Shown in pieces: positions 22,532-23,443 of a stretch of DNA of 64,000 nt. Both the position numbers and the translations under genes were made by a program. Position 1 is the first letter of the stretch. Every line of letters begins with the position of its first letter. This DNA is from Candidatus Latescibacterota bacterium (lineage in GTDB: Bacteria; Latescibacterota; UBA2968; GCA-2709665), in contig CAXXXF010000015.1 in NCBI GenBank assembly GCA_963667175.2, positions 256,001 to 320,000 on the forward strand. Direction: 5' to 3'. Below the pieces are notes generated by a model that saw nothing but the letters and a program-made list of their open reading frames with translations, was not told the DNA's origin and made no database searches.

Positions 22532-23443
22532 TATTACGGGGAGTACCGTATCGTTTACATCCTCCACTCTTCTTTGGTGGGCCTGGATGTCGACGATCTG
22601 CCGCTCCTGAGAATAAACGGAAGCTGACAGTGCGCCGTGGGAAGGCGCGGATCTCCAGTGGGTGAGAGTCCCAACCCGACAAGTGTTGCTACAGTCGGTA
22701 GCAACCGGAGCAGGGACGTAGGTAACGAAATCTCTGAAGCCTCCGGTGTAAAGGGTCGCAAGGCGACCCCGCGAGTATGCAGGCCGTAACGCGCAGTGAA
22801 CGCTGAGCAGGCCTCGAAAACGTTAATGCGGGAGCCGACCCGATTGTCAGCCGGGGAAGGCCGCCGTCGTTGGAAAAAGACAGCAACGCGTGCATCCGAC
22901 GGTCCCGCCGGGGTATTGGCGACGGCATGTATACAAAGGAGATCCATCGCAACACGGGAAGCCCCACCGGTGGTGTGTGTTCACCAACCGGACGCCCGTG
23001 AGGGACAGGCCGGGCCGGATGGGGTGGCGGACAGGCTCGTAGTACCTGTGATGCCGGGTAACGCCGGCGGAGGAAAGGGGCCTGACTTCGGATGTGCTTG
23101 CGAAGGGGACAACGGTCGGGAGAGTGGCGCAAGCCTATAACCTCCTTTAGAAGAAGACGAGGCGACTCCGGAACAAGCTTGGGTTTCAGGTGAAGCTGTC
23201 CGGGCAGCGCGGGCAGCGTGTGCCTGAAGGCGACGTCCGTCGGAGAGCCGGATGCGGGAAATCCGCACGTCCGGTTCGACGAGCGGGATGTGGAAACGGG
23301 GCATGGAGTGGCTATTGAGGCACCGCCAGACGAAAGGGGCGGAAAACAGACAGGCCACTCCTAAACTACCGCGCCACATCCCGACTCTACACTGCTCTTC
23401 CTGACCACTGGCCACTGTCCACTATTTACTGCTCCTGGTATTA
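22532..23443 (+). mobile_element. MITE-like repeat family A, copy 1 (~151 bp, interrupted by a group II intron)
   Basis: 22532-22629 plus 23391-23443 align with the reverse complement of 31885-32037; imperfect TIRs TATTACGGGGAG...CTCCTGGTATTA. Confidence 0.8.
22630..23390 (+). ncRNA. ORF-less group II intron (761 nt)
   Basis: 5' GTGCG; domain V GAGCCGGATGCGGGAAATCCGCACGTCCGGTTC at ~23244-23276; domain VI ending CCGACTCTAC. EBS1 TGTCAGC (22845-22851) is complementary to exon GCTGACA (22623-22629). Removing the intron recreates the empty-site sequence. Confidence 0.93.

Follow-up and report, generated by a model that had tools for sequence, protein, structure and literature searches.

What is an intron of 761 nucleotides (nt) that encodes no protein doing in the middle of a 153-nt repeat, when an uninterrupted copy of the same repeat lies in the same stretch of DNA? 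The stretch that raises this question (the window) is 64,000 nt long and comes from a Candidatus Latescibacterota bacterium whose draft assembly, 95% complete, comprises 5.52 Mb in 18 contigs. The genome is labelled G000 and the window is C15:256001-320000; positions given without a contig label are those of the window, and other G numbers refer to related genomes. I propose that the element is a IIB-like group II intron without an open reading frame (ORF), that it descends from an intron that lost its reverse transcriptase (RT) gene, and that it has been mobilised in trans into the repeat, here called R1. I consider this likely to be correct. The anatomy of the intron, the distribution of its copies, the covariation of guide with target, the separate origin of each insertion and the intact state of the helper genes are established directly, while its transcription, its splicing, its use of a helper and the route by which its DNA synthesis is primed are inferred from sequence.

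The intron lies on the plus strand between AAGCTGACA and ACTGCTCTTC, beginning with GTGCG at 22630 and ending with CTCTAC at 23390, as judged by its ends, matches to Rfam, its predicted fold, and BLAST alignment. The 5' part of domain I (22656-22794) matches the Rfam family group-II-D1D4-4 (RF02003) with 100.7 bits, against a gathering score of 49, and the family that covers domains V and VI (RF00029) is matched at 23243-23321 with 40.9 bits, against a gathering score of 40. Domain V itself, at 23245-23277, is a hairpin with an AGC triad and a 2-nt bulge, on which RF00029, RNAalifold and the fold of the single sequence agree. The latter two methods also predict an unusually long domain VI (23283-23387), with the bulged A of the branch point at 23384, 7 nt before the 3' end of the intron. 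The region 23240-23390 folds with a z-score of -7.07, and none of 200 shuffled sequences proved equally stable. When 15 ORF-less sequences were folded together by RNAalifold, 208 pairs were predicted, of which 9 are kept through two-sided changes, and few are broken; the interior of domain VI is partly deleted in the copies of G003, G005, G007 and G011. The intron ends fit the group II consensus (GUGYG on the 5' side, AY on the 3' side) and are the same in all 26 copies of the family found in this genome. There is no RT ORF. The ORFs within the intron do not exceed 147 amino acids, a Pfam search of them matched no family, and domain IV, where the gene would have been, is a remnant of about 155 nt (23084-23238). 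At the level of predicted structure, then, the element is confirmed as an intact-looking ORF-less group II intron, with domains V and VI in place, as the preliminary description of this DNA had it.

The repeat is equally well delimited. An alignment of 23 copies, collected by BLAST against the organism's own genome, gives R1 sharp common ends and a length of 153 nt. At the window locus, on the plus strand, its 5' part (98 nt, 22532-22629) forms the 5' exon of the intron and its 3' part (53 nt, 23391-23443) forms the 3' exon, with the terminal inverted repeats (TIRs) at 22532-22545 and 23430-23443. The two flanks joined, GAAGCTGACA|ACTGCTCTTCC, occur uninterrupted in the nearby empty copy to which the preliminary description had pointed, at 31885-32037 on the minus strand. 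There the 5' target sequence GCTGACA runs from 31944 to 31938, the A that follows it is at 31937, and the point of insertion falls between the two. The genome as a whole contains 13 full-length empty copies of R1, 2 partial copies, and 8 occupied ones, so the repeat is multicopy. Seven of the occupied copies are full-length and the eighth (C6:489421) lacks most of the left part, while one of the partial copies is a short form of 87 nt, bounded by an internal copy of the right end. The exact target, GCTGACA|A, persists in 8 of the 13 empty copies, the other 5 having changes within the 7-nt site. Free targets for the intron are still to be found in R1.

How have the introns come to occupy these repeats? 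The family to which the window intron belongs numbers 26 full elements and 2 fragments in this genome, as found by BLAST against the genome itself and inspection of the flanks. Subfamily A, that of the window intron, has 8 copies of 761 nt, one of them interrupted by another repeat. Two further subfamilies also lack an ORF: B, with 5 identical copies of 758 nt that are 92% identical to A, and C, with 3 identical copies of 762 nt that are 91% identical to A. The remaining two are full-length and encode an RT: F1, with 4 copies of 1978-1979 nt, and F2, with 6 copies of 1976 nt. These are 86-88% identical to A over intron positions 1-454 and 89-93% over positions 610-761. ORF-less copies thus outnumber those that encode an RT by 16 to 10. 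All 8 subfamily-A introns are found at one position of R1, and none is found elsewhere in the genome, in an unrelated site or otherwise.

A single position of insertion would also be seen if there had been no repeated homing at all, if instead one R1 already carrying the intron had been copied as a whole, whether through DNA transposition or through recombination among repeats. A composite element of this kind would give the same junctions in all eight copies, as observed, and R1 does have the TIRs. It would not, however, make the introns more alike than the repeats that hold them. The seven uninterrupted A introns differ at no more than 4 of 761 bases (identity of at least 99.47%), and the interrupted one has no differences from the window copy outside of its insertion, whereas the R1 copies that house them are only 85-96% identical to each other, with a mean of 89.7%. 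For five of the seven occupied hosts, the nearest R1 in sequence is an empty copy. The host variants differ right up to the junctions (GCTGATA, ACTGTTC and CTCTTTCTG are examples), and the intron at C6:489421 lies in the R1 that is without most of its left part. It is very improbable that multiplication as a unit accounts for these facts. Rather, introns this similar in hosts this diverged must have entered R1 one by one and recently, and so few differences amongst seven copies point to a very recent spread.

What kind of repeat have they entered? The preliminary description took R1 to be a non-autonomous DNA element resembling a miniature inverted-repeat transposable element (MITE). The part of this that rests on TIRs, multiple copies and a length of 153 nt stands, but neither a transposase partner nor a clear duplication has come to light. 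The TIR is 14 nt long and imperfect (TATTACGGGGAGCA versus TATTACCAGGAGCA, 12 of 14 positions). No duplication of the target site is visible beyond a possible TA belonging to both ends, and a search of this assembly for the two R1 ends, allowing up to 3 mismatches, found no element with a transposase, nearly all of its 56 matches lying in R1 copies. For these two reasons I call R1 "MITE-like" rather than a MITE, which seems a fair label for a repeat of its appearance. R1 is non-coding and mostly intergenic: amongst 21 full or nearly full copies, a crude ORF of 120 amino acids or more runs across just 1.

The alternative is that R1 is not the remnant of a transposon but a dispersed intergenic repeat of some other type, perhaps a mosaic module like the repetitive extragenic palindromic (REP) sequences and the bacterial interspersed mosaic elements (BIMEs) built from them, perhaps a regulatory or structural RNA element. 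It draws support from the same missing duplication and missing transposase-bearing element, and from the finding that 10 of 21 R1 copies lie between genes that share the orientation of R1. Comparison with relatives can be read either way. Amongst 40 related genomes, R1 is found at or near full length only in G009 (8 copies and 1 partial, all uninterrupted) and G012 (1 copy and 3 partial), others matching R1 over its first 30-40 nt only. Two of the R1 loci in G009 were compared with the orthologous loci here, which lack R1. Presence in one species and absence in another is typical of MITEs, but the extra DNA at these loci includes modules that resemble R2 and R3, the repeats targeted by sister introns, and its junctions are neither clean nor marked by a clear duplication, as might be expected of a mosaic. 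The sharp common ends of R1, its inverted repeat, its uniform length, and a short form ending at an internal copy of the right end are all what one sees in MITEs. I think it possible but somewhat doubtful that R1 is a repeat of the other type.

Recent insertion at one exact position calls attention to the guide. The loop of a 4-bp hairpin in the intron, ATTGTCAGC (9 nt, 22843-22851), contains TGTCAGC (22845-22851, plus strand), which can serve as exon-binding site 1 (EBS1). It forms Watson-Crick pairs at all seven positions with GCTGACA (22623-22629, plus strand), the intron-binding site 1 (IBS1) at the end of the 5' exon. The preliminary description had noted this pairing, and it is borne out by more than the one locus. 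Seven of the eight A copies have the same IBS1, and the eighth has GCTGATA, which leads to one G-U pair. The loop changes together with the 5' exon across subfamilies and across related genomes. In A, EBS1 is TGTCAGC and the exon ends with GCTGACA, followed by A; in B, C and F1, EBS1 is CATGGAT and the exon ends with (A/G)TCCATG, followed by T (G in one copy); and in F2, EBS1 is TGAAT(TT) and the exon ends with (A/T)TATTCA or something similar, followed by T or C. Eleven copies from relatives have an EBS1 loop and flanks that can be read, and in 8 of them the loop is complementary to the adjoining exon at 6 or 7 of the 7 positions. Because the eight copies share the same junctions and because the loop covaries with the exon, the observation is well beyond the reach of chance.

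A second contact covaries in the same way. The T at 22916 (intron position 287, plus strand) pairs with the first base of the 3' exon, A 23391. The corresponding column is T in A, A in B, C and F1, and G in F2, and it matches the first base of the 3' exon in 25 of the 26 copies in this genome. In the ORF-less copies of relatives with readable flanks, the column is A, C or T, facing T, G or A, and all 12 copies pair. With four types of pairs, this is the EBS3-IBS3 contact of IIB-type introns. The preliminary description had given the role to the T that precedes EBS1 (22844), a contact of the delta type. That base can indeed face the first A of the 3' exon in subfamily A, but the corresponding base is unpaired in B, C, F1 and F2 and in the copies of relatives G002, G006, G009a, G009c and G005a. 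The delta pairing fails in the sister lineages and so is not a conserved contact, and the contact in question is the one at 22916.

The case for EBS2 is weaker. AACG at positions -14 to -11 of the exon (22616-22619, plus strand) is a candidate for IBS2, in that it can pair with CGTT at 22821-22824 (plus strand), but the pairing is weak and depends on the register. Sister lineages have AGGT, GGGT or AGCT in place of CGTT. A scan of all windows of domain I against positions -8 to -20 of the exon turned up no partner that covaries cleanly. The best placed candidate, at intron positions 191-195, forms on average 4.22 of 5 pairs with its own exon, compared to 3.47 of 5 with the exons of other lineages (permutation p of 0.002, amongst lineages that are kin to one another). 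Since the register floats and the lineages are kin, EBS2 is kept as a candidate only.

An intron without a gene that moved recently should have had help. The preliminary description supposed that it was mobilised in trans, and RT-encoding introns with matching ribozymes do exist in the same genome: the ten members of F1 and F2, their ribozyme parts 86-93% identical to the window intron. Each of the ten has an intact ORF of 441 amino acids, with four distinct protein sequences amongst them. The protein has the domains RVT_1 and GIIM and a YADD motif but no endonuclease domain, and it scores 360 bits on TIGR04416, where the cut-off is 300. Proteins 86-91% identical to it are found in relatives labelled Candidatus Latescibacterota. 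When the whole genome was searched for group II RTs, 13 matches appeared, and just the ten in the full-length introns were above the cut-off. Two weak matches to group II RT models, 65.6 and 39.2 bits and so below the cut-off, lie next to one another at C7:45090-46980, which suggests a reverse transcriptase of another kind. By this search the RTs of the ten full-length introns appear to be the only candidate helpers in this assembly.

As to the class of the intron, the best solved relatives of these proteins are RTs of class IIC (GsI-IIC, 9.5e-54), in a structure library that holds few classes, and neither solved structures nor a tblastn search of plasmids provided a label for the class, the latter giving only generic names of the type "ltrA". 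Class IIC was considered for the intron and rejected. Its EBS1 is 7 nt rather than 3-4 nt, its ribozyme without domain IV amounts to about 600 nt, and upstream of it, on the plus strand, there is no site resembling a terminator.

I propose that the cycle runs as follows. The subfamily-A intron would be transcribed, and its splicing would be aided by the 441-residue RT/maturase produced by full-length sister introns of the same genome. The resulting particle of RNA and protein would reverse-splice into DNA at GCTGACA|A, guided by the 7 bp of EBS1, the 1 bp of EBS3, and perhaps the 4 bp of EBS2. This target is available once in each 153-nt copy of R1. Because the presumed helper has no endonuclease domain, synthesis of cDNA would be primed by the nascent DNA strand at a replication fork.

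Several observations weigh against this proposal, and they should be considered together. There is no intron in this assembly, 95% complete as it is, that both encodes an RT and carries a guide of the A type. Domain IV of the ORF-less lineage aligns poorly with that of F1 and F2, 71% over 31 nt and little beyond that. Domain IV is the region that normally holds the main binding site of the RT. With the alignment so poor, recognition of ORF-less introns by the RTs of F1 and F2 is an assumption. The window copy and two other A copies, 3 of the 8, are antisense to both flanking genes, and a search of 22300-23700 found no promoter resembling those of sigma-70 (0.2 expected by chance), although the promoters of this organism may differ. 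Given both facts, transcription of the window copy is unexplained. No strand bias of the sort that priming at the fork would leave shows in the local GC skew, where 15 of the 26 copies lie on the G-rich strand. RNA evidence of splicing at the window locus was not found; the RNA contigs cover the intron interval only, and the fact that none of them joins the R1 exons is neutral with regard to splicing. Finally, the remnant of domain IV is about as conserved amongst ORF-less lineages as the ribozyme is (identity of 0.89 versus 0.91), so conservation provides no separate sign that the ribozyme has been under selection.

Two of these points need qualification. The GC skew was calculated locally, over flanks of 10, 25 and 50 kb. 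At 25 kb, the G-rich strand carries 3 of 8 copies in A, 4 of 5 in B, 1 of 3 in C, 4 of 4 in F1 and 3 of 6 in F2, compared to 6 of 8 empty perfect targets. With contigs that are not ordered and a skew that is confounded by gene orientation, the test gives no usable signal. The RNA data consist of contigs from four runs, labelled either as sponge metagenome or as coded organisms. They cover the intron interval, and the pieces are mostly 90-99% like it, one example being a piece of an ORF-less domain IV-V that corresponds to 23083-23268 with 5 differences. At that level of similarity, they come from related introns.

Do the objections mean that the copies are recent relics, of a lineage that has ceased to move or to be spliced in this organism, perhaps because the RTs of F1 and F2 do not recognise its domain IV? 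Eight perfect targets stand unoccupied, three of the eight copies are antisense to both neighbours, one has a 278-nt repeat inserted in its domain IV, and that domain is strongly unlike that of the RT-encoding introns, all of which would fit. The state of the copies does not. No more than four differences separate seven of them, implying a very recent spread, every copy retains intact catalytic domains and guide sequences, and even the interrupted one has no differences from the window copy outside of the insert. Nor does a diverged domain IV necessarily prevent mobilisation. The "driver" intron-encoded proteins (IEPs) of Thermosynechococcus, whose specificity is relaxed, mobilise ORF-less introns that have diverged (PMC2882425). 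I therefore regard the idea of relics as unlikely and return to the proposal of a lineage mobilised in trans.

If the lineage was so mobilised, where did it come from? Subfamilies A, B and C have the identical type of domain IV remnant, about 155 nt long. The 5' part of the remnant resembles the region of the RT ORF that contains its ribosome-binding site and start (71% over 31 nt), while the rest can barely be aligned. Seven other species of the genus (G002, G003, G005, G006, G007, G009 and G011) have this remnant too, in ORF-less copies that are 720-819 nt long. A remnant common to three subfamilies and seven further species indicates that a single deletion of the ORF founded the lineage. 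In outline, one ancient loss of the RT gene would have been followed by spread or inheritance across species, with the guide changing many times along the way. The target sites in G007, G005 and G011 have short motifs in common with R1 but cannot be aligned with it overall.

One may go further and view the ORF-less lineage as a long-lived "satellite" retroelement found throughout the genus, with its own guides (EBS1, EBS3 and probably EBS2) evolving independently of the RT-encoding partner, and outnumbering its helpers as noted. One branch would have specialised on MITE-like repeats, making a three-level chain of parasites: helper intron, ORF-less intron, and non-autonomous DNA repeat. I offer this larger picture tentatively, as an idea that is less likely than not to hold in full. 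A bolder addition is that circular forms of the intron could be part of its life cycle. It comes from one RNA contig (run X16), in which the 3' end of an intron runs on into its 5' start (23388 is followed by 22627, three bases being ambiguous). The intron is a related one, with 14 differences in 135 nt. The contig fits either circular intron RNA or a tandem copy and has no bearing on splicing at the window locus. In the DNA of 23 genomes, a head-to-tail junction of this sort has one full match, at the end of a contig in the fragmented assembly of G003 (L055:2148-2217), which may be an effect of assembly. An exact-match scan of JGI metagenome contigs with the 25-nt 5' junction gave no matches.

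The neighbours of the window intron are a gene of the isocitrate/isopropylmalate dehydrogenase family (23441-24529, minus strand) and an ORF of 100 amino acids (22174-22476, minus strand). Considering all the loci, most occupied R1 copies run antisense to the genes beside them or are flanked by divergent genes, and by crude ORF calls only 2 of the 8 have the orientation of both neighbours. Of the 8 empty copies that keep a perfect target, 6 do. The difference is suggestive but falls short of significance (Fisher's test, about 0.13).

The sister introns have repeats of their own. An uninterrupted copy of R2 lies within the window, at 34224-34331 on the plus strand, with an intact ATCCATG|T at 34297-34303|34304, the target of B, C and F1. 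Across the genome, 24 uninterrupted copies of R2 span this site. R3, the repeat targeted by F2, has 11 uninterrupted copies. At several loci (G000 C3:249269-249591 and C6:668404-668719, for example), R3 and R2 share an orientation and are separated by about 100 nt, and both appear to be parts of one larger composite repeat between genes. In G002, all 8 ORF-less introns (756 nt, EBS1 of TTGCGAA) share one site, 16 nt into yet another repeat: TAACCTTGATTCGCAA|TTCTTCGGGG (L160-L166, L054). With eight of eight introns in one site of a repeat there as well, targeting of repeats by satellite introns is general in the genus.

Introns and repeats also collect near and within one another. At G000 C6:489368-492703, 547 nt separate an A copy from an F2 intron, and at G000 C6:322952-325230 an F1 intron has an empty R1 150 nt away. 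In the interrupted A copy, the 278-nt insert (G000 C13:174668-174945, L016:1223-1500) follows intron position 572, within what remains of domain IV. It is a member of a second MITE-like family, whose units are about 285 nt long, have inverted ends (CTGTCCAAAA...TTGGACAG) and number about 20 in the genome, at 90-100% identity. In addition, a GC-rich palindrome of about 30 nt, GCCTGCCTG...CAGGCAGG, is found at several different spots inside introns of G009 and G011 (L052, L057, L155-L157) and also, at G000 C2:290477, inside the R2 repeat that flanks a B copy. In appearance it is a very small mobile element of hairpin form.

Amongst known systems, the closest is that of the TeI3/TeI4 introns of Thermosynechococcus elongatus. 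There, a single deletion of the ORF was followed by divergence of the EBS sequences into families, mobilisation by "driver" IEPs, and insertion into mobile elements, and ORF-less TeI3 introns were shown in E. coli assays to be mobilised by the IEPs of sister introns (Mohr, Ghanem and Lambowitz 2010, PMC2882425). The resemblance is extensive: many related copies in a genome, one shared deletion in domain IV that left traces of the ORF ends, divergence into families that differ in EBS sequence and target, insertions in mobile elements and intergenic DNA, sister RTs as presumed helpers, and a majority of copies lacking the ORF (16 versus 10 here, 17 of 28 in Thermosynechococcus). Here too one finds no RT ORF, related RT-encoding introns in the same genome, and good EBS/IBS pairing in 8 of 8 copies. 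The differences are that the host is represented by a metagenome-assembled genome (MAG) of Latescibacterota, the RT has no endonuclease, the target is a 153-nt repeat with TIRs rather than introns or insertion sequence (IS) elements, and the ORF-less lineage is common to several species. Mobilisation of TeI3 was assayed, while that of the present intron is proposed from its sequence.

RmInt1 of Sinorhizobium meliloti and its relatives (PMC4615759, PMC5894124, PMC4181065) likewise have an RT/maturase without an endonuclease, home into mobile elements outside of host genes, and diverge in target specificity, avoiding saturation of their sites. RmInt1 differs from the present intron in that it is autonomous, encoding an RT itself, and in that it is harboured by an insertion sequence that has a transposase. 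That insertion sequence is ISRm2011-2. Bacterial ORF-less introns in general are rare and almost always found alongside related RT-encoding introns (Zimmerly and Semper 2015, PMC4424553), which is exactly the situation here. The same review treats most ORF-less derivatives as having become immobile, whereas the pattern of copies here argues for recent mobility. The HYER ribozymes (Liu et al. 2024, as cited in PMC11754743) are compact ORF-less group II RNAs with a guide of about 7 bp, but they belong to class IIC, while the present intron has a 7-bp EBS1 together with EBS3, no dependence on a hairpin in the target, and large domains I and VI. The present data imply no hydrolysis of DNA.

With respect to repeats as targets, a group II intron of Pseudomonas putida KT2440 lies beside REP sequences, a dispersed extragenic repeat as is R1, but the association is loose, 2 of 9 copies, compared to 8 of 8 at one exact position here (Tobes and Pareja 2006, PMC1525189). 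It was the only relevant case in a full-text search for group II introns together with REP sequences. Amongst the literature matches listed, no title or beginning of an abstract describes an intron homing into a MITE, and a full-text search for group II introns together with Latescibacter gave nothing relevant. Three things differ from the Thermosynechococcus system: the phylum, the RT without an endonuclease, and the exclusive and exact use of a short TIR repeat by a satellite subfamily whose guide is shared by no RT-encoding twin. The intron is a clear example of a rare, already described way for group II introns to spread.

What does this mean for the family? Thermosynechococcus has been the one well-studied system of proliferating introns and a model for their multiplication and for the sharing of a splicing apparatus. 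The present genome is a second natural system, in an unrelated and uncultured phylum, with three ORF-less and two RT-encoding subfamilies and clear retargeting of guides. The short repeat R1 supplies it with many equivalent landing sites outside of genes. For those who annotate these MAGs, it follows that intergenic "repeat fields" are partly built by introns. For those who study the introns, the system may serve as a test case for how far an RT without an endonuclease can reach over diverged satellites, whether a satellite can retarget itself, and whether repeats do serve as safe harbours.

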